A stretch of DNA of 64,000 nt. Source: a virus. Shown here piece by piece: positions 37,354 through 62,189 of the stretch. The notes beneath the pieces are model-generated. The model was given only the letters and a program-made list of their open reading frames with translations, ran no database searches and was not told the origin of the DNA. The stretch lies in IMG/VR virus record IMGVR_UViG_3300027762_000001, one strand, 5' to 3'. Within the stretch, counting starts at the first letter, position 1; each line of letters opens with the position of its first letter. Made by a program: the position numbers and the translations under genes.

Positions 37354-37734
37354 TTAATTGTTTGTACCAGCTAATTGACTGCGCAATACTTCTGCTTCTA
37401 ATTCATTTAATTTATTTTTATTTTGCAAGTATTGTGCTCCGAGTCTTATCCCTTGAACACCTGTACCTATGGCAGCTCCAATTAATGCAGGCTTTATAGC
37501 TCCTAATGCAGCTCCAGTTAATATTCCGCCTAATCCTCCAGCTATCGCTCCACCAGCCCCACCTGTTAGAGCGCCACCTAGAGCAGCTCCCCCAAGCCCA
37601 CCTGCTAACCCTCCAAATGTTCCGCCTATACCTCCACCTATTCCTGCGCCAACTAAAGCACCTTTGCCTAAACTAATTTTATTCTCTTCAGCTATTTTAT
37701 AGATAACCTCTTTATACATTGCCACTTTATCCAT
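37354..37734 (-). CDS. Glycine-zipper putative internal/ejection protein
   Basis: Leader MDKVAMYKEVIYKIA then a long GxxxG stretch. Confidence 0.6.
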   Translation of the reverse strand: MDKVAMYKEVIYKIAEENKISLGKGALVGAGIGGGIGGTFGGLAGGLGGAALGGALTGGAGGAIAGGLGGILTGAALGAIKPALIGAAIGTGVQGIRLGAQYLQNKNKLNELEAEVLRSQLAGTNN

Positions 37735-37758
37735 TACTCTTCCTCCTTAATTTATATT

Positions 37759-37791
37759 ATAAAAGGGTAGGTATGATACCCACCCTTTTAT
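37759..37791 (-). terminator. Terminator after major capsid gene
   Basis: ATAAAAGGGT...ACCCTTTTAT. Confidence 0.65.
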
Positions 37792-37805
37792 TATAACAAT
37801 TAAAA

Positions 37806-38840
37806 TTACATTTCTTCAAGTGAGCCGTAACCTTTAATCTTTCCTTCTTCTTTAGCCATTGCGCCCTTAGTATCATCACTAAGAAGAATCTTGTCATCTC
37901 CAGGAGTGAAGTCTAAGATTAATTTAGCAACAGCTTTTTGTGATGCAAGATAAAGTCCTAAGAACTCAAACATGAATAATCCTTGCTCAAGTTTATTAGT
38001 AACTTCTGTTAATCTTACAGTTAAATCTTTAAGTATAGGCATTCTTCCTACGAAATCTGGCTCTGAGAATGCATATATAGTATTCTTTCCAACAATTCTT
38101 GAAGTGATTAATTTAACACTTCCCCAAATTGAATATTTAACGCCTGACTCTAACATTTCTCTTTGAGTCAATTGGTCTATTTCATTTTGAGCCCAAACTA
38201 GAATATCATCTAATCTGTCTTGTTTCATAACAAAAGCAGCTAGAGGAACATCATGTTGAGACATACATTTTTTTAAGCTAACTAAATGAGTTTTGTAAAG
38301 TAGAGTATCAGCGCTTGTAACTATTTGTGTGTCATGCTCAGGATTTACAGCGTCTCCGCTTCCCATAAGCAATCTATCAACTAAATCTAAGATTTTTCCA
38401 TCTTCGATTTTAGCAACCGCTTGACCTGACAATTCTCTAACTCTTTCTAGATAGTTAAATTTTTGAACTAACATTCTTTTTAAATGAAGAGTAGTATCAT
38501 CACTTGTAATAGTCATGATTCCTACATTAACTCCATCGCCCTCGATTTGATATCTTGGCACTTGACCATCATCAGCATAAAAAGCTGCATGAGAATCGAA
38601 ATCTTTTGGATAATAGAAGTAAGGTTCACCATTTATAAGATGAAGCTCTTCTGAAGTTACGTTGTGAGCTAATAATACTTGTCTTCCAAATGATTCATAG
38701 TCTCTTGTTTCCCTTATAAATGGAGGGAGCTTTTCAAGAGCTAATTTTTCTAATCCACCTGGGGACTCTAACAATTTTCCTAAGTTATAATCAGCATTTT
38801 GAGTTTCACTTGCAGTTTTAATTTTCATAATTCCAGCCAT
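37806..38840 (-). CDS. Major capsid protein (HK97 fold)
   Basis: 344 aa, follows scaffold/decoration genes, precedes a terminator; RDYESFGRQVL, AKIEDGKI, EPDFVGRMP. Confidence 0.8.
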   Translation of the reverse strand: MAGIMKIKTASETQNADYNLGKLLESPGGLEKLALEKLPPFIRETRDYESFGRQVLLAHNVTSEELHLINGEPYFYYPKDFDSHAAFYADDGQVPRYQIEGDGVNVGIMTITSDDTTLHLKRMLVQKFNYLERVRELSGQAVAKIEDGKILDLVDRLLMGSGDAVNPEHDTQIVTSADTLLYKTHLVSLKKCMSQHDVPLAAFVMKQDRLDDILVWAQNEIDQLTQREMLESGVKYSIWGSVKLITSRIVGKNTIYAFSEPDFVGRMPILKDLTVRLTEVTNKLEQGLFMFEFLGLYLASQKAVAKLILDFTPGDDKILLSDDTKGAMAKEEGKIKGYGSLEEM

Positions 38841-38861
38841 TTTAGTTTGTCCTCCCTTCCA

Positions 38862-39278
38862 TTATATTACAGCTTTTATTCTAAGTTCGCCATTAACTGG
38901 AGCGCCCAAAGAATAAGCAGCTATTAACCAAGGTGTAGCGTTTGCTGGATCGTATGGAGTTAATACTCCATCAGCATTAACACAAAGCGGAGTCATAGCT
39001 CCATATGTTTCTGCAGTATCAAAATTACTTACTGTAACTTCGAAAACACCGAAATAATAAGTAACTTTTTTAACTGACTTTCCTGAAATCTGATCTCTTC
39101 CAGCTCTTTTTGAGCTTATGCAAAGAAACGATTTCTTTGTTCCATCTGAAATAACAACTTTACCTGAATCATTAATTGTTACCCATTGTCCTTCTTCAAG
39201 TTCTGTTACAGAATCATCAAGTGGTCTAACTGCAACTCTGTAAGCATACTCGTCTAACCTATTCTCAAATCTTATCAT
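38862..39278 (-). CDS. Capsid decoration/cement protein
   Basis: 138-aa beta-rich ORF just upstream of the MCP. Confidence 0.6.
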   Translation of the reverse strand: MIRFENRLDEYAYRVAVRPLDDSVTELEEGQWVTINDSGKVVISDGTKKSFLCISSKRAGRDQISGKSVKKVTYYFGVFEVTVSNFDTAETYGAMTPLCVNADGVLTPYDPANATPWLIAAYSLGAPVNGELRIKAVI

Positions 39279-39320
39279 GCTTAAACCTCCCTACTATGAT
39301 TTTTAATTTAAAAAAATTTA

Positions 39321-40484
39321 TTAATCTGATAATGACTCTTCAAGAGTGATTCTACGATCACCTAAATCCATATTAATTTGTTTGTCAAGAAAAGTCAAAT
39401 TATCAAGTCCTTCCTTGGTAAATGCGTCAGAATTGATGTTCTCAATTGTTGTTTTTAACATTTCATATCCAGACTCATCAAGTTGCATAACTTTCTCTAT
39501 CTGGCTTTCAATGTCTGCTTTTTTTATTAAGCACTTTTCATTCATTAAATGAGCAAGTTTTGTTGCACTGTCTAGTTTTTCTTTGTTATGTATTGTGGAA
39601 TTTAGTTCGGCGTTTTTAGATATTAACTCCTCATTTTCTTGTGCCAGTTTTCTATTTTCTTTAGCTGCGATTTTTAACATTTTGCTTGCGTTTAAAACGA
39701 CTAGTGATATTTTTTGTATATCTATATTTTTTTGTGATTCACTTTTAATTCTACCATATTTATCGTCGCAAAGAACAGATGATATTTTCTCAATTAATTC
39801 TTTTTTTCTTTCTGATTGATTTTTTTGCATTGCATCACCCTCTTTGCTCTCTTTTTTATCTCCATACAATTTAGATGTTATTGCTAGAGCTCCGACTGTT
39901 GGTAGTACCGCCTTCTTTACTTTACCTAAAGGTGCAGTTGCTAATGGTAAATCTATTTCGCTAAATGTATCAGGGACTCCAGCTTTTGATTCCCCTGTTG
40001 GAACTTGATATTTATTAATAAATGATTTACCGCCCTCACTTCTTGCTCTTGATACATTATCTCTCACACTTTTTTTTACAGAATCCAATCTAGATTTAGC
40101 TTTAGTTATATCTTCGAGGGTCTTAGCTTTAGTTAAAGCTAATCTTGCTCCCTCTAAATCTTTTCTCCCAGAAGATACGGCTTTTTTAACGCTTCTTCTT
40201 CTGAAAAAATTATGTGCGGCTCTACCTCCTCTTATATCCCAATCAGTTAGTTTTTCTTGAGCTTTTGAAAACTGATTTCCAATAGCTTCACTAACTTTTT
40301 TGGGTACAAGCTTTGAGCCAATTCCACTAAAGAAAGAACCTGAGCCTTTTCCTATTAAATGATCTCTAGCTATATCTTTAGCAGAAGATGTTGTACCTCT
40401 AAGATTTTGTTTCCCTATTATGTTGACAAAATCTTGAAAATTCTTAGCTTTTATACCTGCGAATTTATGGAGTCTGTGAGACAC
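39321..40484 (-). CDS. Head protein: basic N-half plus coiled-coil scaffold-like C-half
   Basis: KxA motifs; internal SD and ATG at 39830. Confidence 0.55.
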   Translation of the reverse strand: MSHRLHKFAGIKAKNFQDFVNIIGKQNLRGTTSSAKDIARDHLIGKGSGSFFSGIGSKLVPKKVSEAIGNQFSKAQEKLTDWDIRGGRAAHNFFRRRSVKKAVSSGRKDLEGARLALTKAKTLEDITKAKSRLDSVKKSVRDNVSRARSEGGKSFINKYQVPTGESKAGVPDTFSEIDLPLATAPLGKVKKAVLPTVGALAITSKLYGDKKESKEGDAMQKNQSERKKELIEKISSVLCDDKYGRIKSESQKNIDIQKISLVVLNASKMLKIAAKENRKLAQENEELISKNAELNSTIHNKEKLDSATKLAHLMNEKCLIKKADIESQIEKVMQLDESGYEMLKTTIENINSDAFTKEGLDNLTFLDKQINMDLGDRRITLEESLSD

Positions 40485-40500
40485 AAAAGCTCACCTCCTA

Positions 40501-41292
40501 CTATTCTTGCAATAAGCTATATATATTATAAATAATATCATCTGCTACTTGCATAGAATTTTTTTCTGCAATATAAGCTAGTTTCTCACTTTTATCAACT
40601 ATTGTTTCAATTGCCACTTTATCTTCTATCTTTTGTGAAACATAGTCAGCAAGATCCATTCCTTCTTTTTCTAACTCTTGAGCAGCTAAATCATATGCAT
40701 ACTTAACAACTTCTTCGTCATATTCTGCTGCAGTTTTATTTTCTTCTTCTTCAGTCTCTTCTTCAGCTTCTTCAGTTCCTTCTTGAGTAGCTTCAGCCAC
40801 TATTTTTTTAGCTATCTCTTGAGCTTTTTGAACAAGTTCTTCTTTATCTTGATTCTCTTCCGCTCTTTTTTCTACACCTTTAGCTAAAGCTGATTTTAGG
40901 AGTTTTTGTTCTGCTTCTGCTTCGCCTTCATCAATAACTTCATCTTCACTTTGAACTTCACTGTGATCTCTTTCTTCACTAGTATCAATTCTTTCGTCTT
41001 CACTCATTAACTCTTCTTCCATTGTTTTTCTTTTTGAGTGATTAACTTTGTCTTCTTTAGGTTGTTCAACAGTTCTGTTTTCTAATGAAGGTTCTTCAGC
41101 TACTTTTTCCATAAACATATTATCAATTTCTTCAGCTAAAGCCTCTAGTTGATCTGGTGAAAAATTTTCTTCAAGTATTTGTTTTGCTTCATTTTTATCA
41201 ATACTTGAAGCTGTCTTGTTAATATTATTTTGATAAAAATCTTGGCTTATTAACTCTTCGTAAAAAGCCTCACTTCTTTTATTATCAGACAT
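40501..41292 (-). CDS. Acidic scaffold-like head protein
   Basis: Glu-rich; NKTA, EKVA, EKRA, NKTA, EKLA. Confidence 0.6.
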   Translation of the reverse strand: MSDNKRSEAFYEELISQDFYQNNINKTASSIDKNEAKQILEENFSPDQLEALAEEIDNMFMEKVAEEPSLENRTVEQPKEDKVNHSKRKTMEEELMSEDERIDTSEERDHSEVQSEDEVIDEGEAEAEQKLLKSALAKGVEKRAEENQDKEELVQKAQEIAKKIVAEATQEGTEEAEEETEEEENKTAAEYDEEVVKYAYDLAAQELEKEGMDLADYVSQKIEDKVAIETIVDKSEKLAYIAEKNSMQVADDIIYNIYSLLQE

Positions 41293-41451
41293 TTTCTTGT
41301 AATCGCTACAACCTTTGATATTTTAACAAAAATATCATATAGCGATTCTCTCCTTTCTTTTTTATTTTCAGCGATACTAAAAGCACTTGTTTATTTTAAT
41401 TTTATATACAAAAAACCTAAAAATCAAGTAATCATTATCATTTAAAAAATA

Positions 41452-43821
41452 TCATGATTGTATTGTTTGATTTTTAATACTGTTTTTAGGTTTTTTTGTC
41501 AACTTATGTCCTATATATGCAAATATAGATGCGTCTACTAAATTTGATGGAAGAGCTGATAAGGCTGATTTTTTAGGATTGGTAAATAGTGAGTATGTGC
41601 CAACATCCTTTATTACCGAACCTATTGCTCCTGCAACTTTTTCTACAGTATAATTAAAATCTGTTTTTATAGCTTCTTTACATATATTTAAAAAATTATC
41701 TATATCATATTCGGATAATTTATTTATGGATAATATTTCATCTGCAACATCTTGTCTTTTTAATTCATTTAAGACACATGCATATTTTATTGCACTAATT
41801 TGTTTGTCAGTGTATTTTTCTTTTAAAGTTTTATCTATAGATGCATTTTTAAATATATTATTATTTTCATCATCTGCTTTTTTATAATATTTAGATGATA
41901 TATCTTGTAATTTTTTAGATACATCAAGTCCTTTACCTTTAAATGTTTTTACTATTTTTGGAGCAAATGCTTGAAGCACATATGCGTTAGCAGGATTTTC
42001 TGCCATGTATCTGTTAAACCCGCTTAAGTTTTCTCTATTTTTAAGTCTTGACCTTTGAATTGCAGAGTAACCAAATACAGCGGGTAGTCCATAGGCTAAG
42101 GCTTTTCTTGTAGTATATCCTTTACCTAGTAAAGCTGTTTTTTCTATAAACTCATTTGTTAAATTATCTATTGTGTCTCCCTCTATGTGTGATGCAAACT
42201 TTTCAAGCCCATATGTAAAGTTATCAGATGCTAAATGTTGAACTCTTTGCCCTTGGTAGTTGGCATATAATAGTGACGGTATAATATATTTTAAGAAGTC
42301 ACCTATACCATCAGTATCATTTCTCATTAACATTGCTGGCAAGAAATGAGGTGCATTATTAGTTAAAGGTTTGCTTGGCAAATTGGATATTCTATCAACA
42401 AAAAATCTTGGATGCATACTTCTTTGAGGCATCTCATCTTTTACAAAATCCATCATATCATTATATGCTAAATCTTCATTTAGCATAGGCAATCTTCTTT
42501 TTATTGTCACTATTATTGCTTTAACTTTTCCTAATGGATGTTTGCTTCCTCTTACTAAATCTTGTATATTATCTGTAATCGGAAGTATTTTTTCATTTAA
42601 CGTATCAAACATTGAAGGGAAATTTATTAATTTACTTATGTCGTTTCTTGCAACATTCTCATCTGCTATTTCAACACAATTTCCTGGAATATCAATATCT
42701 TTAAATTGTTCTCTAAAGTCAGATGGACTTGACCCTATTAAAGAATTAAATATATCATTAAACTCTAATGGTGTAAGCTCTATTCCTGCAAAGTCTAATA
42801 CTTTTAAAAATTGGTCGAAAGCATCTCTTAGTGGAAGCTCTTTTTTAATGGCAACTCTTTTTATATTTTCTGCAATCTCGACACATTTTTCTTTATTCCA
42901 ATATTCATCATAAAATAATTTTAAAGAACTTCTTAGATTTTCTATATTTTTATATCTATCACTTAACACTTCACCTTCTGCTGAGTTTGTAATTTTCCCA
43001 ACTATTTCTTTTTTTATGTCAGCTATTTTTTGAAGATATTCTTTTTTATTGGATGCTATCTTCTCAGGGAAAATTTCAAGACTATTAAGTATAAGATTAT
43101 CAACTTTATCATTCGCGCATTTTTCAATGCCTATATCCTCGTTAAGAAAGTTTTCTTTTATGCTAGCAACCTTTTTAATATTAGCATCAAAGCAACTCTT
43201 ATCAAGTTTTAAATCTAGAACTTTAGCTGATTTTTCAGCTCCATTTAAAACTGCAGATATATCATGAAATTTTGGCTCAATATTTATTTCAAAAATTTTA
43301 GTACCATCATCTAATACTTGATTCTTCATATTTCTAATATGGTTACAATACTCACTTCTTACTTTGGCTTTATTTCCACAATAAGAGCATACACTATGTT
43401 TTATTCTACATCCCATAGAAACATCAGTCATAAAACCTTTTTCAAATCCTCTAACAATAGTAGGGGCTAACTTTCTATCTACCCTTATTAGAAGTTTAAC
43501 ACATTTCATTTTATCATCCCATTGAGAATCCAAAACATCCCCAATAGCCTTTGATACATCTTTATTTTCGTGGTTTTTAAAAAAGTGAGCTGTTAAAAAT
43601 GTCTTGTAATTTTTCTTTAATTCATCTTCCGGAAAATAATCTGCATTTTTATTCGATCCGTAAAACTCTCCCGCACTTACAGCTTTTACTACCATATAAA
43701 AGAAATCAGAGTCGTATTTAATTCCATCTGGCAATTTAATTGCTGCGGTTTTTATTAAATTATCATCTAATATTTCAAAATTATCTTCATTTAAACTAAA
43801 AGTAGTTGTTTTGTAAAACAA
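41452..43821 (-). CDS. Prohead (capsid maturation) protease, assemblin/HK97-like, with Zn-finger and long C-terminal extension
   Basis: NKNADYF...FKNHEN...DVSMGC (putative His/Ser), CSYCG...YCNH; first gene of the head operon. Confidence 0.7.
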   Translation of the reverse strand: MFYKTTTFSLNEDNFEILDDNLIKTAAIKLPDGIKYDSDFFYMVVKAVSAGEFYGSNKNADYFPEDELKKNYKTFLTAHFFKNHENKDVSKAIGDVLDSQWDDKMKCVKLLIRVDRKLAPTIVRGFEKGFMTDVSMGCRIKHSVCSYCGNKAKVRSEYCNHIRNMKNQVLDDGTKIFEINIEPKFHDISAVLNGAEKSAKVLDLKLDKSCFDANIKKVASIKENFLNEDIGIEKCANDKVDNLILNSLEIFPEKIASNKKEYLQKIADIKKEIVGKITNSAEGEVLSDRYKNIENLRSSLKLFYDEYWNKEKCVEIAENIKRVAIKKELPLRDAFDQFLKVLDFAGIELTPLEFNDIFNSLIGSSPSDFREQFKDIDIPGNCVEIADENVARNDISKLINFPSMFDTLNEKILPITDNIQDLVRGSKHPLGKVKAIIVTIKRRLPMLNEDLAYNDMMDFVKDEMPQRSMHPRFFVDRISNLPSKPLTNNAPHFLPAMLMRNDTDGIGDFLKYIIPSLLYANYQGQRVQHLASDNFTYGLEKFASHIEGDTIDNLTNEFIEKTALLGKGYTTRKALAYGLPAVFGYSAIQRSRLKNRENLSGFNRYMAENPANAYVLQAFAPKIVKTFKGKGLDVSKKLQDISSKYYKKADDENNNIFKNASIDKTLKEKYTDKQISAIKYACVLNELKRQDVADEILSINKLSEYDIDNFLNICKEAIKTDFNYTVEKVAGAIGSVIKDVGTYSLFTNPKKSALSALPSNLVDASIFAYIGHKLTKKPKNSIKNQTIQS

Positions 43822-44019
43822 AAATCTCAGCTCCCTTCTTATCTTCTAAAGATATTATACTACATTGAAACTTGTATTTAAAACAACTTAAATTTTTAGT
43901 TTAAAAATATATATATTATTTCATTTTTTATATACAATTTACCGATAGAATTTCCAGTGTAAAAACATTACATTATTAGATTAGAATTACTGTAAATATA
44001 AACATATATAACCCCCTTC

Positions 44020-44705
44020 TCGGACAAGCTAACTTTTTTTTAGTTAGCTTGTCCGAGTTGTAAAAGTCTGGGAAAATATGCATACTTGTGTTTATAAAAG
44101 TCTGAAAACCATTGATATAACTGTATTGTAAGAAAATTTTTTTCAATATAATTACATAACTAGGTGGACACTTCCATGCTCGAAGTGTCCACAAGTGTCC
44201 AAATACATTTTTTTCCACCACCCTCAAAGTGGCTCTAGGACTACTCCCATTTTTTGAAGTGTCTGCCAGTCAATTAAGTGTCCAGACGAAATCGTTGTGC
44301 GAGTTGAGTTTTAATAATTTTGGACACTTTTGACCCTAAAAAATATAAAGGGGGGTATAAAAAAATTTTTTTGTTTTTTTAAAAAAAAATTATAAAAATA
44401 AAAAAACAAAAAAATTTTTTAGGGGGGGTTTATTTCGTATAAAAAGTGTCCAAGGTTTCTCTTATTATAATAATAATAATAATATAATATATATATATAT
44501 ATATATAGAACGTAATTGTCCGTAAGGCTTTCAGTTTTTACCTGTTTTTACCTTTTCCCAAATATTTGAAAAACTAGGTGGACACTGGGTGGACACTGGA
44601 GGACACTTCAAAATTCCCCAAAAAATGGGCACTAGAGCCAAGCGGGTTTGAGGGTGCTGGAAAATATTAGGTGTGGACACTTCATGGACAGACGTGGACA
44701 CTTTT
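44020..44705. repeat. Origin-like element: 11 GGACACT iterons in nested inverted repeats around A/T tracts
   Basis: See finding; non-coding; at the divergence of the two transcription blocks. Confidence 0.7.
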
Positions 44706-44791
44706 ATTTTTTCAACTGGAAATTATGCTTACAAAACTATATATATAATTTGAGTTTTTCTATATATGTTATTTTAAAAAAATATGTTATG

Positions 44792-44812: not shown

Positions 44813-44858
44813 AATGATTTTTGCTTTTTAAATTATTTTTTTAAAGGGGGTAATTTTT

Positions 44859-51373: not shown

Positions 51374-52282
51374 ATGAAGAAAAAAAATAGTAAAATTAGT
51401 AGGTATGTTATTCTTATAACTATTTTAGTGGTTTTTGTTTTAATCTTATTAAGTTATTTTAATGTCTCTCATGGATATTTAGAAGTAGATGAAATGAGAA
51501 AAGAAATTAGTAAAAACAATTACTCTTTTAAGGTTGCAGAAAATCCAGCAATTACACGAAAAATAGGAAATCTTAATATTGAGAATTTTTCAAAAAGGTC
51601 AAAATCTTTAAAGAATAAAAAAGTAAGTATATTAGAAGATATTCCTGCAAAGTATGACTCGAGAGAATTAGGAGTTGTAACTCCAATAAAGGATCAAGGA
51701 GAAGTTGGCACATGCTGGGCTTTTTCGACTACCGCAGCAATGGAAGTTGCGATAGCAAAAAAAGATAATGTAATAGTGGATCTCTCGGAACAATTTTTGA
51801 TGGCAGTAAATACTGAAGGGTATGGAACTAATGGTGGATGGTTTGCTCATCATTATCATATAAATCCAGGTGCTGTTTTAGAAGAAGACTTCCCTTACCA
51901 AGGCAAAGATGGAATAAAATTTGATATTCCAGATTACAATTATAAGTACATAGCAGATGATTGGGGTTATGTAGATGAGAATGTAGACATTCCAAATGTT
52001 AACATTTTAAAATCTGCAATATATAAATATGGATCACTATCTGTTGCTGTATATGCGGATAGATATTTTCAATATTATAAGGGTGGTATATTTGACAGAA
52101 ACAGAAAAGGTAATGTTAATCATGCTGTAAATTTAATAGGCTGGGATGATGAGAAAAAGGCCTGGATACTAGAAAATTCATGGGGCACAAAATGGGGTGA
52201 AAATGGTTTTATGTACATAAAATATGGAACAAATCAAATAGGTTATGCTGCATCCTATGTTACATATAGTGGTCTAAAATAA
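51374..52282 (+). CDS. Exported papain-family (C1A) cysteine protease
   Basis: N-terminal TM/signal; KDQGEVGTCWAF, LSEQ, NHAV, NSWG. Confidence 0.9.
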   Translation: MKKKNSKISRYVILITILVVFVLILLSYFNVSHGYLEVDEMRKEISKNNYSFKVAENPAITRKIGNLNIENFSKRSKSLKNKKVSILEDIPAKYDSRELGVVTPIKDQGEVGTCWAFSTTAAMEVAIAKKDNVIVDLSEQFLMAVNTEGYGTNGGWFAHHYHINPGAVLEEDFPYQGKDGIKFDIPDYNYKYIADDWGYVDENVDIPNVNILKSAIYKYGSLSVAVYADRYFQYYKGGIFDRNRKGNVNHAVNLIGWDDEKKAWILENSWGTKWGENGFMYIKYGTNQIGYAASYVTYSGLK

Positions 52283-53182: not shown

Positions 53183-53291
53183 ATTGTATCCTCCTTATTT
53201 GTTATAGCTTGATATTTTTTAGCCTTAACAATATAATTTTATTATATAGTTATAAAATGTCTACTATTTTTTGAAAATAAGGAGTGATATT

Positions 53292-54254
53292 ATGCCATCA
53301 TTATTAGAAGCTTTATCTGGCGGACTAAGTTTTTCATCACCAGCAGTAAAAGATTCAGGGAGCTTCGCTCTTCAGTTAGGGCTTTATAAAGATTCAGTTG
53401 TTAACGATTATAATAAATACAGTACACCACTAAACGAGAGCATTGCAAAAATAGCAAAAGAAAACAGCTTAAATGATAATCAGATACAAAGAATAGTTGA
53501 AGAAGTAAATAACCAAGTTTACCTTGTAAAATATGCTCAAGTAAAACAATACAAAGAAAGAGAAGTAATCTTTGATTTAGCATCTTTAAAAGTTGTTAAA
53601 GGTATACTAGAAGGAAAAGAAGCTATAGAAGATAACGATTCTATTGAGAAAAAAGCTAGCTGGAAAGAAGGAGACGATTTAAATTTTTTAAATTATAATA
53701 AATGTAAATTGCCAGGAATGAGAGAAGATAAAATTAAACCATTATCAGAAATAATGGGGGAAAAATTAGCACACGAAATATCTGAGAAAAATAAAAATTT
53801 TGATAAGGCATTGGAAAAATTTGCAGAAACAACTTATGATATAGCTGAAGCATTAATAAAGTATGATAGATTTAATAAAGACCCTCAAGAAATTTTTAGT
53901 CATATATGTAAAGAGGCAAGTGTAAATAAATATGACCAAATAATGATTAAAAAGGCTGTAACTCAAAAAGTTAATCAATTAAAAGAAGCAAGATATCTTC
54001 CGTCTGATTATAAGTTAGAATTAAATATAGTAGACTGTGCAAAGGAAGATAATTTTTCACTAGGCGAATATAGTTTAAATAAAAGAGCAAATGTAGCGCA
54101 AAGCAATGTTGAACTTCCTGTTATAGAAACTGATAGTAAAAAAGTAATAAAAAATATTCAAAGCCTTATAAATATGGCAGAGAAAATGCAAGAAGAAAAA
54201 CAAAAAGTTATTAATTTAAATGAAAATAAAAATATAATTAATAACTTAAAATAA
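53292..54254 (+). CDS. Putative internal head protein
   Basis: LNESIAKIAKENSLN...; multiple KxA sites. Confidence 0.55.
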   Translation: MPSLLEALSGGLSFSSPAVKDSGSFALQLGLYKDSVVNDYNKYSTPLNESIAKIAKENSLNDNQIQRIVEEVNNQVYLVKYAQVKQYKEREVIFDLASLKVVKGILEGKEAIEDNDSIEKKASWKEGDDLNFLNYNKCKLPGMREDKIKPLSEIMGEKLAHEISEKNKNFDKALEKFAETTYDIAEALIKYDRFNKDPQEIFSHICKEASVNKYDQIMIKKAVTQKVNQLKEARYLPSDYKLELNIVDCAKEDNFSLGEYSLNKRANVAQSNVELPVIETDSKKVIKNIQSLINMAEKMQEEKQKVINLNENKNIINNLK

Positions 54255-54274
54255 AAATGGAAGGAGGAACCTTT

Positions 54275-55378
54275 ATGCCTCACGGTGCAGTCAAGACTCC
54301 CGAGCAAGAAGTGTTATGGGAAAAGGCAAAATTGCAAGCCGAAAAGCAGGGTCAAAAAGATAACTTTGCCTATATAATGGCTATATATAAAAATATGGGC
54401 GGTCTTAATAAAACTGCTATGGAAGATATTTTTATGGAGAAAACAGCTAAAGTTGGTTTTATAGGAAGGGTATTAGGGAAAAATGTAGGCATTGCAAAAA
54501 AAGAATTAGGCTCAGCTCTTAAAGATTTTCAAACAAAAAAAAGTTTATTAAGAAATAAAAAAGTCCAATCAGGTTTTAAATTAGGGCCACTTGATTTTAG
54601 AAAAGAAACTCCATTATACAATAAGTCTGAAATTAGAAAAATATTAAGTTCAGACATGAATAAACTGCAAGATCTTAGAACATTAAAAAAACTTGAAAAT
54701 AAAGAAACTTTTAATGCTAGAGTTAAAGGTGCTTTAGGTTTGGGCGGATTAGCAGCTGCAACACCTTATTTAAAAGATAAAATAGTAAAAGGTAAATACA
54801 CTTATCCACAAGAAACTTATACGGAAGAAACTATTGCGAACAGTGTAGTGCATGGTCTACTAAAGGAAGCTTCAATAAAAAATAAAACTCTCAACTTTTT
54901 AAAGGGAGTAAAAGATATTGGTACATTTAAAGGATATAGTGCTGCAAAACAAAATTTAAAAAATATAGAGAAGGGAGTAAATCCAACTTATTCCCTAAAA
55001 ATAAAAGAGCTTATAGGCCTTAAGAGGTCCATTAAAAACTTAAGCGGAAAAAATGAAGAGTTGAAAAAACAAATATTAAGAGAAAAAGGGTTGGATGAAA
55101 ACTCTGTATCAAGAACAATAATAGACAGAATAAAAGATGGCAATGATGTTTTAAATGCAAAAAGCAGAAGGGCGAAAGATTTAGAAAATTTATATAAAGG
55201 TAATCAAGATATTATTGGAACTGCAAATAATAAATACCAAAAAGAATATAATAAATTTGTTGACGTTAAAGACAGGGAGCTCTCTAAATCACTTGGTCTC
55301 TGGAGCATTCCAACTGTAGGAGCCCTTTATGGTGGTAAAAAAATATTAGATAAACGAAAAGAAAAGGGTAGTCCTTGA
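54275..55378 (+). CDS. Putative internal/ejection protein (basic, two hydrophobic cassettes)
   Basis: NKTAMEDIFMEKTA; GALGLGGLAAA; GLWSIPTVGALYGG. Confidence 0.55.
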   Translation: MPHGAVKTPEQEVLWEKAKLQAEKQGQKDNFAYIMAIYKNMGGLNKTAMEDIFMEKTAKVGFIGRVLGKNVGIAKKELGSALKDFQTKKSLLRNKKVQSGFKLGPLDFRKETPLYNKSEIRKILSSDMNKLQDLRTLKKLENKETFNARVKGALGLGGLAAATPYLKDKIVKGKYTYPQETYTEETIANSVVHGLLKEASIKNKTLNFLKGVKDIGTFKGYSAAKQNLKNIEKGVNPTYSLKIKELIGLKRSIKNLSGKNEELKKQILREKGLDENSVSRTIIDRIKDGNDVLNAKSRRAKDLENLYKGNQDIIGTANNKYQKEYNKFVDVKDRELSKSLGLWSIPTVGALYGGKKILDKRKEKGSP

Positions 55379-55441
55379 TTATTTTGTTTCAATAAATTAA
55401 AATAGTTTTATAATACTTATTCTTTGGGAGGTTTTTAAGTT

Positions 55442-56371
55442 ATGAATAATAATGAATATAACGTATTGGTTGAAAAGTTAGCAGAGGAAATTATAGTTGA
55501 TACAGCAAAAAGATCGGAAGGTAATTTTGGGCAACCAGGAAGCTTTCCAAATATGCAACAAGAACCAAATGGTGGAGTGTCAGGTTTAGAAAGAGGCGGA
55601 GAAGAATCAAAGAGTATAGGGTCTAAGTTTTTAGATTTTATAAAAGGAACTAAAAAAGTAGAAGTTGGACCTAATGTTGTTGCTGATGCTTCAACAGGAG
55701 ATTATGCGGTTAGTGAAACTAAAGTTGCTTATGAAGAATTAGAACTAGTTAAAACTGCAGCTGAAAAAGCTTTTAATGAAGCTGACAATTATGTTCACAG
55801 TGATTCAATAAAAGAAGCAGCTTATCAAATCTATGAAGAAGCAATAGAAAAAGAAGCTACTCTAGCTTATTCTGAATCTCAAATGTTAAAACAAGCAGCT
55901 GAAGAAGCTTTCTCTGAAGCTGATAATTATGAAGATGAAGAATATATTAAACAAGCAGCTTATGAAATATTCATGGAAGCTGAAGAAGTTGAAAAGGCAG
56001 CATCAGAATATTTAGCAGAAAAAACTATAGAAGAAGCTGCGGAAGCATTTGATTACTCTCAAATGTTAAAAAGTGCGGCTGAAGAAGCTTATGCAGAAGC
56101 TGACAATTATGAAGACAGCGAGTATATCAAACAAGCAGCAGAAGAAATTTACGCTGAAGCTTTAAGTATAGAAAAAGAGGCTGGTAGCTTTTTAGTTGAA
56201 ATAGAAAAAGTAGCCGAAGAAGCGGCAGAAGAAGCAACTAAAGAAGAAGAAGATGAAGAGGAAGAAGAAGATGAAAAAGAAGAGCCTAAAGAAGATAAAG
56301 AAGAGGCTTCTAATAGTATGGCTCAAAAAATAATAGAAGAAGCGGCAAAGAAAAAAATGAATAACGAATAA
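55442..56371 (+). CDS. Acidic scaffold/core protein with three internal repeats
   Basis: KxAAEEAFxEADNYEDxEYIKQAA-type unit x3. Confidence 0.6.
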   Translation: MNNNEYNVLVEKLAEEIIVDTAKRSEGNFGQPGSFPNMQQEPNGGVSGLERGGEESKSIGSKFLDFIKGTKKVEVGPNVVADASTGDYAVSETKVAYEELELVKTAAEKAFNEADNYVHSDSIKEAAYQIYEEAIEKEATLAYSESQMLKQAAEEAFSEADNYEDEEYIKQAAYEIFMEAEEVEKAASEYLAEKTIEEAAEAFDYSQMLKSAAEEAYAEADNYEDSEYIKQAAEEIYAEALSIEKEAGSFLVEIEKVAEEAAEEATKEEEDEEEEEDEKEEPKEDKEEASNSMAQKIIEEAAKKKMNNE

Positions 56372-56397
56372 GCAAATCTTTAAAATCAGACATTTAA

Positions 56398-56428
56398 AAG
56401 GCATTTCTTTAATTTAAAGAAATGCCTT
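56398..56428 (+). terminator. Hairpin (terminator or processing site)
   Basis: AAGGCATTTCTTTA...TAAAGAAATGCCTT. Confidence 0.5.
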
Positions 56429-56450
56429 CTTCATAGAAAGGAGCATAGAG

Positions 56451-57872
56451 ATGGAGAAAAATTCTGGAGTAGGTAGCATATTAAGTACCGCATATGTTGG
56501 AAGTGAAGCTATTAAGGGAGCAAAGGAAAGTAAAAGACTCCTTAAAAATCCTAATGTAAATAAGTTTGATGAAATTTTAAAAAACACTCCACAAAAAACT
56601 ATTTCAACTTTTAAAATGTCATCAGCAATTGACGAGCTGTATCTTGAGAAATTATCATACGAAAACAATCAAAATAATGAAGATAAAAAAAAGAAAAGAA
56701 ATATAGCGCCTTACATAATTGGAGCATCTATATTGGGAGCTGGCGCTGCTGAAGCTATAAAAACAGGAAATCCATTAAGGCCACTGAGAACTGCAGGTAA
56801 AGCCTTGAAGGAATTTGGGCACAAGCTACCTAAAGCTGTACTTGGCAGAAGTGGAAAACCTATATTTGAAGGTTTAAGAAAATCTAAACAGATAGTTCAG
56901 GATACCAAAAAGTTTGATAAAGCATTACATGGAGGATCGCCACAAAATCTTCTCCATTATTATTTGCCAGGCGTTGTTTTTGGTGGAGGTATGGGTGCAA
57001 GCAATTTAGCGGTTCATTTGTTGGGAGATAAATACTTTGATAAAAAAGTTAATAGAAAATCATATAATAATTTCCCAAGCCCTAGTGTTCAAATATATAG
57101 AAAGAGAAAATCAGCATCAGATATGATAGATAATAATTTCATGGAAAAAATAGCACAACTAAAAGGCAAAGCTTTTGCTAAAAAATTATTTGTTGAAGAT
57201 TTTTTACAAAATAGTTTAAAAACAATACCTTTTGCACTAACTCCAATAGCTGTATCTCATGCAATGAATAGAAATTTAAAAACTGATTTTAGTCCAATAA
57301 GAGGAAGTAAAGCTCAAAATCATAATGTTGATAAAATTATAATCGAAGTGCCAAGAGAAAAACTTATTAAAACAGCAAACGTAAAAAAAAATTTTCAACT
57401 ATATAAAAAATTAAAAGGTAAAAATTTTAAAGGGTTTACTTTCAGTAAATTTAAACCTAAAGCTGATTCAGGTATAGAGTCATGGGAAAATTTTGCAAAA
57501 TATAGGGTGCCTGAAGGCATGGTCAGGTCTTTAAGTTGGTTTGGAGTTCCTGCGGCTATAACTGCGCTAACTGGAAGAAATATAAAAGGCTTAGGAGAAA
57601 AAGTTAAAAAACATGAAGATATAGATCCTGATAAAGTCAGAATAACAGTTGATAGAGGTTCTGAATACGATGATGCAAATAAATTTATGGATGCATCTAG
57701 AATGTCAAGAATGGCAGATACTAATGAATTATTTATTGAGAAAAAATCAAGTGTGACAAAAGACATAGATAAAATAGTGAAAAATATTTTATCTGAAAAT
57801 AAAAAACTTAAATCAATAAATCCAAGAGTTATAACTCAAGGTATTCAAAAAAACAAAAAAATGTTAGGATGA
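56451..57872 (+). CDS. Putative internal/ejection polyprotein
   Basis: IDELYLEKLS, IDNNFMEKIA, TNELFIEKKS separating basic/hydrophobic cassettes. Confidence 0.55.
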   Translation: MEKNSGVGSILSTAYVGSEAIKGAKESKRLLKNPNVNKFDEILKNTPQKTISTFKMSSAIDELYLEKLSYENNQNNEDKKKKRNIAPYIIGASILGAGAAEAIKTGNPLRPLRTAGKALKEFGHKLPKAVLGRSGKPIFEGLRKSKQIVQDTKKFDKALHGGSPQNLLHYYLPGVVFGGGMGASNLAVHLLGDKYFDKKVNRKSYNNFPSPSVQIYRKRKSASDMIDNNFMEKIAQLKGKAFAKKLFVEDFLQNSLKTIPFALTPIAVSHAMNRNLKTDFSPIRGSKAQNHNVDKIIIEVPREKLIKTANVKKNFQLYKKLKGKNFKGFTFSKFKPKADSGIESWENFAKYRVPEGMVRSLSWFGVPAAITALTGRNIKGLGEKVKKHEDIDPDKVRITVDRGSEYDDANKFMDASRMSRMADTNELFIEKKSSVTKDIDKIVKNILSENKKLKSINPRVITQGIQKNKKMLG

Positions 57873-58123
57873 TAATTTTGAATAATATAATAAGCGTAAT
57901 AACTGAAGCTGCATCAAAGAAAAAATTAGTTGAAATAACATATCAAGACTCAAAAGGTCTTGTTACAAACAGAGAGACAGAGCCATATGAAATAAGAGAT
58001 AATTCTTATTATGGATTTTGTATTTTAAAAAACAGTATAAGAAAATTTAAATTATCTAACATTTTGTCAGCCAAAATGTTAGATAATGAGTATAGACCTA
58101 AGTGGTCAGTTAAAATTCCGTAA
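57869..58123 (+). CDS. Stand-alone WYL-domain protein
   Basis: VEITYQDSKG...REtEPYEI...YYGFC...IRKFKLSNI. Confidence 0.8.
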   Translation: MIILNNIISVITEAASKKKLVEITYQDSKGLVTNRETEPYEIRDNSYYGFCILKNSIRKFKLSNILSAKMLDNEYRPKWSVKIP

Positions 58124-58196
58124 AGATAGGCTGCTTTACTTTGATTGCTATTTATAATAAAATTTAAATTGAAAACATAATAAAGGAGGTTTAATC

Positions 58197-58340
58197 ATGG
58201 AATATAAAAATCATCCAGGATTTATCGCTTTTAAAGCTTCTAATGTAAAAGAAGATGTAAGCTGTAAAGAAGAAAATATTGATAAAGATATCGTTGAGCC
58301 TGAGAAAAAGAATGAAGGTGGTGACGAAGGCAAAGAGTAA
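58197..58340 (+). CDS. 47-aa acidic peptide (not in ORF track)
   Basis: SD AAAGGAGG; MEYKNHPGFIAFKAS... Confidence 0.55.
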   Translation: MEYKNHPGFIAFKASNVKEDVSCKEENIDKDIVEPEKKNEGGDEGKE

Positions 58341-60210
58341 AATCTTTGCCTTAATACTTATGAGAAAATTATCTGATTCTATAATAAAAGAAGCATGTGA
58401 AGAACTAAATGTTGAAGGAAAGCTAGAAAAAAAGGCTTTAAACTTTGCAGATTTTTCTTTTTTGCCAGGATCTATATTGGGCTCAATAACTGGCTCAATT
58501 ATAGCTGGGAATAAAGTTAAAGCTGAGAACCTTCAAAGAAGAATGGAAGAAGAGGACAGAACAGCTTTAAGCGGAAATTATTATAACCAGGCTCAAAATA
58601 TAGTTAATAACTTAAAAGTTGTATTCACGCCATTTGGAGTTATATATATAGTAAAAGATGGCCCTAAAGAAACTACGATTGAAAATATAAACACAAATGA
58701 AATGAATACAGCTATGTACTCTGCTTGGCAAGCTAAAGATGCAGAATACTTTAAAAATATACTATTAAACAAAATGCAAAGTGAGCTTCAATTTGTTGAA
58801 CAAATGTTTGCAAAAAAAATGGTGGAAAAACAGCTTGGTATAAATAATACGATAAAACAAGAAAAGAAAGCATCTATAGATTTTAATGACTTAACTTTAT
58901 ATGAAACTTTAGAGTATGTATCAAAAATGAAGGATATGTATTCTAAACAAAATGAAGCTACAGAGAAGATAGCATCTCTTTTAATTAATGAGATGGATGA
59001 AAGAGAAGATGATTATGTTATATCTTTAAAGTTAGAAAGACCAGTAGAAAAATATGCTTTCTTCGGAGAGGCTTTAAAATTTATGGGGCTTGAAGTAGGA
59101 AGTAAAGACATAAAATCATTACAAGGAAAATTTCTTAATCCATCACATTTAAATAATAGAGTTCAAGTAGGCTTTTTACCTGATAGAGTTGTTTTTATAG
59201 TTGATAATAAGGTTATGTCTTCTCTTCTTGCTATGGATATGAATGAGGAGGGATTTGAGAATTTTAATAAAAGTAATGAAGGTTACTTTAGAAACTTATT
59301 TAAAGAAGAAGCTAAAAAAGGAATGTTAAGAATTCAAGGTAAGATTCCGCCTAATTCTCCTTTAATGAAAATGCAAGAAAAAAAAGCATCTTTTGAGGAT
59401 AATGACTTATCTCAAATCTTTAAAAGAAACGACATACATCCTTTAATTTATTATAAAGCTTTAACAAAAACATTCGGTGATACATGGATTTCATGGGACG
59501 GCAATGCACTTGTTAAAGCAATAGAAAACTCTTTTAATTTAAAAGATGGTGTACCTAGTATTCCACTAAATAAAATATTATCAATAGAAGTTTGTAATTC
59601 TAGCTATACTCCATATACAAGTAAGCATGCTTTCGAGAAGATAATAAGAGGTTTTACTGAAAAATCAGTTAACTTTATGGAGAGAGAAATCTCAGATATA
59701 ACTCCAGAAGATTTAGCTCTAGGTATAGATGCTTTAGATTTAGTAACTCCTAATGATGATATATATGATAATTTCAATCATGAAGTCTTCTCTCATATAA
59801 TTGAAATCTTATTGATAAATAATTGTAAAATATTTTATCCGTCAGAAATGACAGACTCTGTTTTAAAAGATGAATTTTATAGTCAATTAAATGAATATCT
59901 TTTAAATGCTACAAATAAAAAAGATATTGAAGCTATAGACAATAAGAAGCTTGAGAGTAAAACCATAAGTAATAATACGATAATAAATAAAGTATCTTTA
60001 TCTATACTTAACAATATAAGGAAAGTAAAAAAATCTTCTGATTTTGATAATATAAAATTCATTTCAGATGTACTAAATAAAACAAGTATAGAAGATAATA
60101 TAAAAAGCATTATTGAAAAACAAGTTACAAATAATATATTTTTAGATGAAGTATTGGTTATCAAAACAAGAGTATTAAAAGAGCAACTCGCTTTTCTTGA
60201 GCTAAATTAG
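58321..60210 (+). CDS. Putative head protein upstream of portal
   Basis: Several KKA/KIA/KYA sites; internal duplication (VVFTPFGVIYIV vs VGFLPDRVVFIV); likely GTG start. Confidence 0.55.
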   Translation: MTKAKSKIFALILMRKLSDSIIKEACEELNVEGKLEKKALNFADFSFLPGSILGSITGSIIAGNKVKAENLQRRMEEEDRTALSGNYYNQAQNIVNNLKVVFTPFGVIYIVKDGPKETTIENINTNEMNTAMYSAWQAKDAEYFKNILLNKMQSELQFVEQMFAKKMVEKQLGINNTIKQEKKASIDFNDLTLYETLEYVSKMKDMYSKQNEATEKIASLLINEMDEREDDYVISLKLERPVEKYAFFGEALKFMGLEVGSKDIKSLQGKFLNPSHLNNRVQVGFLPDRVVFIVDNKVMSSLLAMDMNEEGFENFNKSNEGYFRNLFKEEAKKGMLRIQGKIPPNSPLMKMQEKKASFEDNDLSQIFKRNDIHPLIYYKALTKTFGDTWISWDGNALVKAIENSFNLKDGVPSIPLNKILSIEVCNSSYTPYTSKHAFEKIIRGFTEKSVNFMEREISDITPEDLALGIDALDLVTPNDDIYDNFNHEVFSHIIEILLINNCKIFYPSEMTDSVLKDEFYSQLNEYLLNATNKKDIEAIDNKKLESKTISNNTIINKVSLSILNNIRKVKKSSDFDNIKFISDVLNKTSIEDNIKSIIEKQVTNNIFLDEVLVIKTRVLKEQLAFLELN

Positions 60211-60221
60211 GAGGGTAAACA

Positions 60222-62189
60222 ATGAGTGATATAAATAAAGACATAACAGAATTAGATGAACTTCCAATGAACGCCATAGATCTTGACAATCCTCTTGATG
60301 GTGATGATAAAAAAATTGCAATGTTAAGAGAGGAAAAAGATAAGGCTATAAGTATGGTGAAGATTGCATCTTTTGATGGAAGACTTCAAGACCCATACCC
60401 TACTCCATTTTTAAATTTATCCGATACCAAGATACCTAGGACATCAACTGAAATTTTTAAATGGTGTAAATATTTTTATACTTTTGACCCGCTAATTGCA
60501 GGAGCCATTAATGCACTATCCACTTTTCCAGTTACTGAAATTTATTTAGAAGATGTAGATGAAAACGGAAAAGGCGATAAAAATGAAGATAGTGATACTT
60601 TAATTTTATATAAAAAAATCTTTTTTAAAGATTTAAATATATATAAAATGTTAATTGAAATAGGTATAGATTATTATTTGTATGGCAACTGCTTTATATT
60701 TGGAGAACTACATACAAATAAAGCAACTGGTAGTGTTGAGTGGAAGAACATGGTGAGACTTGATCCTAATAGAGTTATTATAGATTATAACCCGGCTACA
60801 AAAGAAAAGAAATTTAAATGGAGAGTATCTCCATCTATTGCTAAAATTATAAAAGATAAAAAGCCAAAAGATGAGTATAATAAAATACCAGATATAATGA
60901 AAGAGGCAGTACTTAAAAATAACTCTATAGTATTAAATTCAAATAATATATATCACTTCCCAAGACCTACAGATTCAGCGGGAGATAATAATATTTGGGG
61001 AACACCTATTATTGCAAATGTACTAAAACTTTTAATGTATAGAAATATATTAAGACAATCTCAGGAGGCTATTGCGAGAGAACATATAGTGCCTATGAGA
61101 GTTTATTATTTAGATAGAACCAATGATTATAATCCTACGGCTGATTGGAATAAAGTTGCATCTAACTTTGCTGCTGAACTTAATAAATCAGTAAAAGACC
61201 CTAATTATAAAGTTGTATCTCCTGTTCCTGTTAATTTGATAAATGTTGGAGGTCAAGGAAGGGCTTTATTATTAACTCCAGAAATAGAGCAAATACAAGC
61301 TGAGATTTTGGCAGGAATGAATGTTCCAAGAGAGTTTATATTTGGTGGAGTTGGTTATTCTGGAAGTTCTATATCTTTAAAAATATTAGAAAATCAGTTT
61401 ATAACTTATAGACTTTTACTAAAAGACTTTATGCAAAACTTTATAATAAAAAATATGGCTAAAGCTAGAAAAGAATGGGTTAGTGAAAAGGATGATAGTT
61501 CATTAATTACAGTTAAAATGATGGACTTAAAAATGCAAGATGACGTACAGCAAAAACAATTAGTAATACAATTAAATCAAGCTGGCAAATGTACTAATGA
61601 GTATATGTGGAAAGTTATAGGAATGGACCCTGATAAAATGAGGGAGTCATTAAAAGATGAAGCAATAGAAGCTATAAAAACTGATACAGAAATAAAAATG
61701 GAGCAGTTAAAATCACAATTAGAACTTCAAAAGGTGCAGATGCAAGTAGATCAAGAAATAAGAAAATTCCAATTAGAGATGTATAAAAGTGACCCACAAA
61801 TGAATCAGGAAGAAGCTCAAATGAGTCAGGAACAACAAATGATGCAACAGCCTATGCAAGGACAGGGTCAAAGTCAAGACCAAGGTATGCATCCAGCGGC
61901 ACAAGGTCAAATGCAACCAGAGCAAATGCAACCAGAGCAAAATCCAGCTATTGACGAATCTGATGTCGTCAATGAGGATGCTCAGATTCAAAATGTTGCT
62001 CTTCAATTAATTAAAACAGGGGAAAAAGGAAGAGATGCTTTCTTAGCTTCCTTGCCTGATAGATATAAACAAAAAGTTATAAAGAAAATGCAAGAATTAA
62101 CAACATCTATGAATAATCAGCAAGGTGCAGGAATAGATATGAGACCTATGCCAGAACAAAAACCACCAAGAAGAGATAGCCTAAAATAA
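60222..62189 (+). CDS. Portal protein
   Basis: DPLIAGAIN...YLYGNCF...LDPNRV...WGTPII...ILAGMNVP; Q-rich tail. Confidence 0.75.
   Translation: MSDINKDITELDELPMNAIDLDNPLDGDDKKIAMLREEKDKAISMVKIASFDGRLQDPYPTPFLNLSDTKIPRTSTEIFKWCKYFYTFDPLIAGAINALSTFPVTEIYLEDVDENGKGDKNEDSDTLILYKKIFFKDLNIYKMLIEIGIDYYLYGNCFIFGELHTNKATGSVEWKNMVRLDPNRVIIDYNPATKEKKFKWRVSPSIAKIIKDKKPKDEYNKIPDIMKEAVLKNNSIVLNSNNIYHFPRPTDSAGDNNIWGTPIIANVLKLLMYRNILRQSQEAIAREHIVPMRVYYLDRTNDYNPTADWNKVASNFAAELNKSVKDPNYKVVSPVPVNLINVGGQGRALLLTPEIEQIQAEILAGMNVPREFIFGGVGYSGSSISLKILENQFITYRLLLKDFMQNFIIKNMAKARKEWVSEKDDSSLITVKMMDLKMQDDVQQKQLVIQLNQAGKCTNEYMWKVIGMDPDKMRESLKDEAIEAIKTDTEIKMEQLKSQLELQKVQMQVDQEIRKFQLEMYKSDPQMNQEEAQMSQEQQMMQQPMQGQGQSQDQGMHPAAQGQMQPEQMQPEQNPAIDESDVVNEDAQIQNVALQLIKTGEKGRDAFLASLPDRYKQKVIKKMQELTTSMNNQQGAGIDMRPMPEQKPPRRDSLK

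Follow-up and report, generated by a model that had tools for sequence, protein, structure and literature searches.

A Lys-x-Ala motif in the head proteins of a large phage as the probable substrate code of its gp21-fold prohead protease

To our knowledge, the prohead proteases with known substrate rules are few, i.e. those of T4 (L/I-x-E), of the phiKZ group (S/A/G-x-E) and of the herpesviruses (A↓S; arrows mark observed or predicted cuts). The T4 gp21 and phiKZ gp175 systems share short motifs, redundant sites and cleavable targeting leaders (PMC9026906), and herpesvirus pUL26 is a protease-scaffold fusion in which the release and maturation sites, YLQA-T and VQA-S, are cut after Ala (PMC4498786). 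Here, we analyze a 64,000-nucleotide stretch of viral DNA (referred to as the window; IMG/VR record IMGVR_UViG_3300027762_000001) that comprises bases 38475-102474 of a single 152,620-bp contig of an uncultured phage with 31% G+C, and we suggest that a short Lys-x-Ala motif recurring in its head proteins is probably the substrate code of the phage's own prohead protease, the product of open reading frame (ORF) 41452 (ORFs and their products are cited by their lowest coordinate in the window).

The head genes of the window lie in two blocks, one on the minus strand (37354-43821) and one on the plus strand (53271-62189), and in these blocks the motif exists, is strongly enriched and is directional. 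As the general core we used hydrophobic-x-K-x-A and counted it forward, reversed (A-x-K-x-hydrophobic) and in residue-shuffled sequences, and counts are given in this order throughout; P1 Ala is part of the site definition and, therefore, not independent evidence. The 13 head-block proteins contain 51, 17 and 12.2 +/- 3.6 sites, respectively, so that the enrichment holds against a composition-matched background, and for the narrower hEK.A (h, hydrophobic) the counts are 18, 3 and 1.1. An earlier note on this stretch had described an extended form of the motif in unrelated proteins of both head blocks. All of the strings that it quoted were found in the genes to which it had assigned them, and the form [FY][MLI]EK.[AS] occurs six times in four proteins of the window (40501, 41452, 54257 and, with three copies, 56451) and eight times in six proteins in the whole genome, compared to 0.68 times in residue-shuffled proteomes (maximum of four in 300 shuffles). 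This strict F/Y-containing form is lineage-specific, with only three copies in G001, a complete 160,540-bp genome of a related phage. A DNA-level repeat as the origin of the six copies was rejected because the copies differ in their codons. The short sites that the same note had placed near N-termini are also present, as IKTA in the major capsid protein (MCP) and the protease and as KKIA and VKIA in the portal, and its dozen or so K-x-A sites in 55442 number 12 by sequence reading. These 12 are not independent because 55442 consists of three diverged tandem repeats of ~60 aa.

Tail and replication proteins, from which the extended motif had been reported absent, are indeed at or near background for the general core (20, 14 and 12.2 for tail; 4, 2 and 3.4 for replication), as is the RNA polymerase gene (1, 4 and 4.4). 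That the motif is confined to head proteins, by contrast, holds only in relation to these groups: the rest of the genome is enriched (130, 73 and 71.5), and we attribute this excess to leader-tagged enzymes encoded outside the window. Separately, the tail-block protein 7168-8868 (minus strand) contains three copies of a repeat G-[PT]-[LI]-T-K-x-A-I-x-x-F. This repeat is the source of most of the mild K-x-A excess of the tail block and looks like a repeated domain rather than cut sites.

A motif of this composition could in principle have no specific function and be a by-product of Lys/Glu/Ala-rich helical or coiled-coil composition together with internal repeats. E, K and A are abundant in the head proteins, three repeats account for the dozen sites of 55442, and K.A is mildly over-represented across the genome (332 vs 246 in shuffled sequences), all of which would fit such an origin. 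We consider it extremely unlikely because it is contradicted by three comparisons. First, the reversed motif and the shuffles give 3- to 6-fold fewer sites. Second, a position-specific scoring matrix (PSSM) trained on Salmonella phage Arash and Vibrio phage D181 only finds 10 sites in this genome compared to 1.0 in shuffles; eight of these 10 are in the head blocks (five of the 10 in 55442), and the tail proteins (9,855 aa) and the replication proteins contain none. Third, in orthologues of this phage and G001 the K and the A/S are both kept at 23 of 36 sites, compared to 21% expected from the other K and A residues of the same proteins. Moreover, the motif carries over between phages with 31% and 53% G+C, its K and A are invariant while the flanks are unconserved, and the five-residue period of its tandem copies does not fit a helix.

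As modelled, the protease domain of 41452 has the T4 gp21/herpesvirus assemblin fold. The AlphaFold2 (AF2) model of the 41452 product contains a confident domain at aa 27-192 and helical modules from aa 259 (259-775). Using VIA-align, AF2 residues 34-194 matched T4 gp21 (5jbl_B) with a Z score of 9.6 and a root-mean-square deviation of 3.0 A over 125 aligned aa, and in the same comparison the next unrelated fold reached Z 6.9 and the human cytomegalovirus (HCMV) protease Z 4.5-5.1; Foldseek returned 5jbl_A with a probability of 0.98. Among 40 homologues H84, S135 (in DVSMGCR), H161 and H186 are invariant, H84, S135 and H161 being candidate residues for a Ser-His-His triad, and the domain contains a Cys cluster (C138, C145, C148 and C159). 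A Pfam search with the protease returned no family even at an E-value of 0.1, and a sequence search of the PDB returned none; therefore, the enzyme represents a sequence-divergent branch of the gp21/assemblin fold class. The protease and the scaffold-like helices share one reading frame with a release-type site after the protease domain, and the 41452 product is best read as a protease-scaffold polyprotein that consists of a predicted N-terminal serine protease, helical scaffold-like modules and flexible linkers.

The distribution of the motif within this polyprotein connects the motif to the enzyme. Site conservation was counted in an alignment of 90 protease homologues, and invariant columns were taken from the 40 homologues mentioned above. 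As aligned and modelled, the best-conserved sites are islands in unconserved, predicted-disordered linkers: the segments with a predicted local distance difference test score (pLDDT) below 50, i.e. 1-26, 193-258, 549-569 and 626-651, are the locations of the four best-conserved sites (Table 1), and two of the four bracket the folded protease domain. Directly before the domain, phage G gp19 has LVKTA↓A at the aligned position together with VKIA↓P, and Arash gp222 has LTKQA↓A. Directly after the domain, where K217 is invariant, the equivalents are ILEKVA↓S in phage G, which there also has LLKIA↓S, VLEKVA↓N in Arash and VLQKVA↓S in D181. The C-terminal 570 aa contain only five invariant residues, of which K561 in the third site is one.

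A similar pattern is found in other head proteins. In the 56451 family (47 representatives, 16% mean column identity), K-x-A is kept at the three extended-motif positions in 28, 39 and 25 sequences, the flanks of these islands have a conservation of 0.08-0.14, and K67, A69 and A235 of the K-x-A sites are three of only five nearly invariant columns. In the portal, MVKIA↓SF marks the transition from the variable N-terminus to the conserved core, and G001 has QEKVA↓SF at the aligned place. The MCP has two candidate sites. Phage G MCP starts where the product of a cut at the first (aa 6-10) would begin, and the BLAST alignment to Arash MCP starts exactly at the second (aa 30-34; GLEKLA vs GLVKEA), which aligns with GLTKEA↓G in D181 and is the position of the only N-terminal site in the Arash and D181 capsid proteins. 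The acidic 55442 is a probable disposable scaffold or core protein. In this protein each ~60-aa repeat has three K-x-A sites and a poly-Glu/Lys tail follows; Tandem Repeats Finder detected the acidic tail only, the ~60-aa repeats being too diverged in DNA. The scaffold-like 39321-40484 is a single ORF, and its counterpart in G001 (159217-160159) is two genes, of which the second starts with the double motif LINKIA, DMEKTA; at the place of this start the fused ORF has ELIEKIS and IDIQKIS.

These data also bear on the possibility that the motif is an uncut docking peptide, which would have affinity for the scaffold core, the protease or the inner surface of the capsid and would recruit proteins into the prohead like the cargo-loading peptide of encapsulins, cleavage being absent or taking place elsewhere. 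Islands of conservation within disordered stretches are traits of short linear motifs, the motif heads unrelated enzymes outside the head blocks, and in T4 the determinants of targeting and processing overlap in one 10-residue leader (PMC9026906), so that docking and cutting are mutually compatible roles. However, a single acidic protein of 309 aa (55442) has ten sites, sites bracket the catalytic domain of the protease itself, others occupy the far N-terminal end of the MCP and the border of the portal core, and small residues are favored at P1 and P1'. This site layout and the small P1 and P1' residues correspond to the known pattern of prohead-protease substrates and not to a single docking tag, and we consider docking without cutting unlikely.

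The motif is also enriched in other phages that possess the protease. The counts are 42, 9 and 8.8 in the head block of G001 and 38, 12 and 6.6 in Arash gp218-226, whereas the remainder of the Arash genome has no excess (74, 93 and 80.7), and the genes around the D181 protease have 33 forward and 5 reversed sites. The motif-bearing head-block proteins gp218 and gp220-225 of Arash and its RNA polymerase gp206, which begins with MPKSA↓S, were detected in virions by mass spectrometry (PMC10585845). In phage G the gene next to gp19 starts with MSKKISRLKKTA↓L. Positions not selected for in the search agree in four phages: P5 is L/I/M, P6 is Gly, and Glu is enriched 4-5-fold at P4 and Ser 3-5.6-fold at P1', where Ser, Ala and Gly are all enriched; an acidic bias at P7-P10 is weak (about 2-fold). 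Arash has 53% G+C and a Gram-negative host, and the hosts of the phages that retain the motif include Clostridia, Bacillus/Lysinibacillus, Vibrio and Salmonella; what these phages have in common is the gp21-fold protease. To judge from these sequences, the motif appears to track the gp21-fold protease family rather than host or base composition.

Alternatively, the motif could be cut by another enzyme, either a protease of the host or the product of 51374-52282, a papain-family peptidase. There is precedent for the former in staphylococcal phage 80alpha, in which a host protease processes capsid and scaffold proteins, and the latter is a second protease in the window, with a match to Peptidase_C1 at 3.3e-45. 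However, the motif is kept across hosts with the gp21-fold protease as the shared factor, it flanks the domain of that protease, and the C1 peptidase carries a membrane anchor at its N-terminus and is without a homologue in G001. Processing by another enzyme is, in our opinion, very unlikely, and the papain-family peptidase was rejected as the processing enzyme on account of its membrane anchor and its absence from G001. The peptidase gene (plus strand) is flanked by the replication genes on one side and the second head block on the other, and the enzyme could have a role in lysis or a function at the host surface.

By combining the fold of the protease, the co-occurrence of motif and protease, the islands in linkers and the conservation in the 56451 family, we favor the model in which the motif serves the phage's own prohead protease as its substrate code. 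The earlier note had proposed that the 41452 protease cuts after K-x-A. These comparisons support the motif as the recognition and cleavage signal of this protease, whereas a cut exactly after Ala is plausible. The code would read hydrophobic (P5), Glu or any residue (P4), Lys (P3), any residue (P2) and Ala, with Ser as a rare alternative (P1), and the residue at P1' would mostly be Ser, Ala or Gly. Three elements of this model are inferred: cleavage of the motif, the position of the cut behind Ala and a role of the motif in targeting.

Several observations weigh against this model. First, the actinophage relatives of the protease in Stormageddon and Myrna are not accompanied by an enrichment of h-x-[KR]-x-A; therefore, the rule is not family-wide and is confined to part of the protease family. 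Second, at P5 of the N-terminal IKTA of the MCP a Lys takes the place of the hydrophobic residue, and both candidate sites are absent from phage G MCP. Third, several moderately conserved sites fall in predicted helices; E, K and A favor helices, and the reversed-motif control addresses this bias and does not wholly remove it. Fourth, the fused RNA polymerase of this phage carries no tag. Fifth, Table 2 of the paper on the Arash virion proteome, if taken literally, gives 100% coverage for Arash gp221, gp223 and gp224 (PMC10585845); we regard this column as not literal because it also gives 100% for a 129-aa protein with two unique peptides. Finally, a literature search for mature N-termini of head proteins of these phages returned no report: the paper on Arash (PMC10585845), in which the data are not resolved to peptides, does not mention a protease or cleavage, and the multi-omics paper on phage G contains no cleavage data. 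Mass-spectrometry data on virions exist for both phages. A literature search for a Lys-x-Ala rule returned nothing, and one for prohead-protease cleavage motifs returned Glu-type motifs only.

With respect to the actinophages, whose proteases are distant relatives, the capsid proteins Myrna gp99 (L020 7839-8846) and Stormageddon gp15 (L024 9755-10756) have in common GSG-[LF]-G-R-[FV]-A↓K near the N-terminus (aa 8-16), which may be an Arg version of the site.

A second aspect of the motif is its arrangement at N-termini. Unrelated proteins share short leaders that end in the motif, as in ORF 37354 (Table 1), MNKVA-MYKDA-IYKLA and MDKIA-MEKVA-MYKEA-IYKEA, and complete five-residue motifs start at Met1 or stand in tandem. 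Because the period of five residues fits neither of the helical periods of 3.6 and 7, it argues for repeated discrete sites and against an amphipathic helix. The acidic-hydrophobic helix preceding K-x-A, which the earlier note had taken for the packaging signal, is not borne out: alignments keep only P5 (L/I/M) and P4 (Glu), the rest being gappy, AlphaFold predicts short low-confidence helices that end at K-x-A, and F/Y at P6 is a peculiarity of this lineage. By analogy to T4, the tandem five-residue leaders are better candidates for a targeting role than is the upstream helix.

Three proteins with such sites illustrate their contexts. A WYL-SNF2 helicase encoded outside the window (L022:62-2194, minus strand) has the same type of K-x-A leader at its domain borders, with the SNF2 core (aa 125-557) enclosed by sites at aa 9, 108 and 627, and a DNA-ligase-domain protein, likewise from outside the window (L023:15177-17579, minus strand), has the domain at 24-288 and such a K-x-A leader after it, with a site at 307; the two look like polyproteins of virion cargo. 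In the 37354-37734 protein, the leader is followed by a long Gly/Ala-rich hydrophobic stretch resembling a glycine zipper and then by a short polar tail. Arash gp224 is similar in composition, and the 37354 protein may be a membrane-active protein that is ejected.

In the model in which the motif is the substrate code of the 41452 protease, head maturation would proceed as follows: (i) the polyprotein would be built into the prohead through its scaffold-like part; (ii) leaders of one to four tandem five-residue motifs would probably load cargo onto the scaffold core, as does the T4 capsid-targeting sequence; (iii) the protease would free itself by cuts before (aa 26) and after (aa 219) the catalytic domain and between the modules (aa 563 and 649); (iv) it would trim the N-termini of MCP and portal; (v) it would chop the acidic scaffold or core proteins (40501, 55442 and 39321) into small pieces that leave the head; and (vi) it would process the basic or hydrophobic internal proteins (54257, 56451 and 37354).

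The genomic context of the motif is summarized in Table 1. The minus-strand head block encodes a Gly-rich small protein, the MCP, a decoration-like protein, a scaffold-like protein, an acidic protein and the 789-aa protease; the plus-strand block encodes five proteins without a family match, an 84-aa ORF that matches two PHROGs only, both function-unknown, and the portal. The gene order protease, acidic protein, scaffold-like protein, decoration-like protein and MCP recurs in G001, Arash, D181 and phage G. Among named relatives even the nearest are distant: Bacillus phage G is matched by both the MCP (30% identity) and the protease domain (39.5%), and Salmonella phage Arash and Vibrio phages D69, D148 and D181 are matched through the protease only. 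In G001 the identities are 71% for the MCP, 41% for the protease and 56% for the portal. The protease has 198 homologues in metagenome protein data, many on contigs of 130-170 kb, and a few contigs with protease homologues bear metagenome-assembled-genome (MAG) labels of Clostridia. A search of viral contigs for related loci succeeded with the MCP as the query and gave no confirmed relative with the protease or 56451 as the query; a search for shorter stand-alone homologues of the protease gave only four matches, three of them short fragments.

Table 1. Features of the two head blocks and positions of putative sites. Coordinates refer to the window; arrows mark predicted cuts; conservation of protease sites is given for the 90 aligned homologues.
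Feature	Coordinates	Strand	Evidence
Predicted protease-scaffold polyprotein, 789 aa	41452..43821	-	phrog_18299 head maturation protease at 7.5e-11; phage G gp19, Arash, D181 homologues
Protease domain, aa 27-192	43246..43743	-	fold match to T4 gp21; invariant H84, S135
Putative site LIKTA↓A, aa 22-26, directly before protease domain	43744..43758	-	89/90 homologues; K24, A26 invariant
Putative site IKKVA↓S, aa 215-219, directly after protease domain, release-type	43165..43179	-	88/90 homologues, consensus LEKVA-S, flank conservation 0.07
Putative site IEKTA↓L, aa 559-563 (TNEFIEKTA of the earlier note)	42133..42147	-	85/90 homologues, flank conservation 0.12
Putative site YYKKA↓D, aa 645-649	41875..41889	-	55/90 homologues; K647, A649 at least 90% conserved
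Major capsid protein, 344 aa, HK97-type	37806..38840	-	phrog_2522 at 1.6e-28; phage G gp27 30% identity
Candidate MCP site KIKTA↓S, aa 6-10	38811..38825	-	[KRA]-I-K-T-A-[SA]-E after variable-length prefix in nearly all 120 homologues
Candidate MCP site G-LEKLA↓L, aa 30-34	38739..38753	-	full consensus fit; conserved across clade
Gly-rich 126-aa protein, five-residue-motif leader MDKVA-MYKEV-IYKIA at N-terminus	37354..37734	-	sequence reading
Scaffold-like protein, 387 aa, 4 sites; two genes in relative G001	39321..40484	-	sequence, G001 comparison
Acidic protein, 263 aa, 5 sites incl. NKTA↓S and FMEKVA↓E (nt 41098-41112)	40501..41292	-	sequence reading
Head protein, 327 aa, Arash gp220 homologue; 7 sites forward, 0 reversed	53271..54254	+	
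Basic protein, 373 aa, double site LNKTA↓MEDIF-MEKTA↓K (nt 54404-54448)	54257..55378	+	
Acidic repeat protein, 309 aa, 10 h-x-K-x-A sites	55442..56371	+	sequence, PSSM matches
Basic protein, 473 aa, hydrophobic segments; extended sites nt 56643-56657, 57141-57155, 57735-57749	56451..57872	+	
Conserved head-block protein, 643 aa, function-unknown, 3 sites	58279..60210	+	no Pfam or PHROG match
Portal protein, site MVKIA↓SF at nt 60354-60368	60222..62189	+	phrog_16240

Most likely, what is new here is the specificity (Lys-x-Ala), and the kind of system, i.e. a head-maturation protease with a short cut motif, is already known. We also put forward, as a tentative proposal that is somewhat more doubtful than probable, that the 41452 protease belongs to a widespread, undescribed clade of gp21-fold prohead proteases with an assemblin-like Ala↓Ser rule and Lys at P3, in which h-x-K-x-A serves as a portable tag for loading and release. 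This clade would span ~150-170-kb phages apparently infecting Clostridia as well as phage G, Arash and the Vibrio phages, and the tagged cargo would include whole enzymes and polyprotein modules (the SNF2 helicase, the DNA ligase domain and membrane-active proteins). If this proposal is true, virion cargo could be recognized directly by its sequence, and foreign proteins could be directed into phage heads by means of the tag. A rule that is readable from sequence would make it possible to predict the mature forms of virion proteins, the scaffolds that are disposed of and the cargo that is injected, for hundreds of phages not in culture as well as for the culturable phages G, Arash and D181, and it would link the maturation of phages and herpesviruses by substrate specificity, beyond fold.

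Among the known systems T4 gp21 matches the structure of the protease domain best (Z 9.6), and the likeness would extend to the organization of substrates: T4 gp21 cuts one short motif in many head proteins and is itself cut at both ends, and the N-terminal leaders of T4 IPI-III and Alt, ~10 residues long and terminated by the cut site, bring unrelated proteins into the head (PMC9026906). In contrast to T4, in which the cut follows Glu in L/I-x-E, the motif here, h-E-K-x-A, has Lys at P3 and Ala at P1; Pfam sequence searches reveal no similarity to gp21; the protease is fused to scaffold-like modules; and the leaders consist of tandem five-residue units that also join modules inside long proteins. 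The large phages phiKZ (gp175) and SPN3US (gp245) have a virion-packed RNA polymerase and process many head proteins at a three-residue motif with redundant propeptide sites and a preference for Ser at P1' (PMC9026906, PMC10052503), features to which this phage would be a parallel. In these phages, however, the motif is S/A/G-x-E and the capsid proteins are different, whereas the clade of this phage has a small HK97-type MCP and a single-chain beta-beta' polymerase. The closest parallels are Arash (gp218-gp226), D181 (0273-0282) and phage G (gp19-gp21), with a homologous protease, the same motif before and after its domain and a crowding of the motif in neighboring head proteins; unlike in this phage, their proteases are encoded by shorter genes (300-491 aa), separate from those of the scaffold-like proteins.

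Herpesvirus pUL26 provides the second point of comparison. As in 41452, an N-terminal protease of the same fold class (HCMV, Z ~5) is fused to a C-terminal scaffold with a release site directly after the domain, and Ala followed by Ser or Thr at its cuts compares to P1 Ala and P1' Ser at the predicted scissile bond here. Unlike in assemblin, the motif here includes Lys at P3 and a hydrophobic residue at P5, putative sites and substrates are many more, and the enzyme is much closer in structure to T4 gp21. In the best reading of these analogies, the system would work like T4 gp21, with an Ala-Ser rule closer to that of herpesvirus assemblin.

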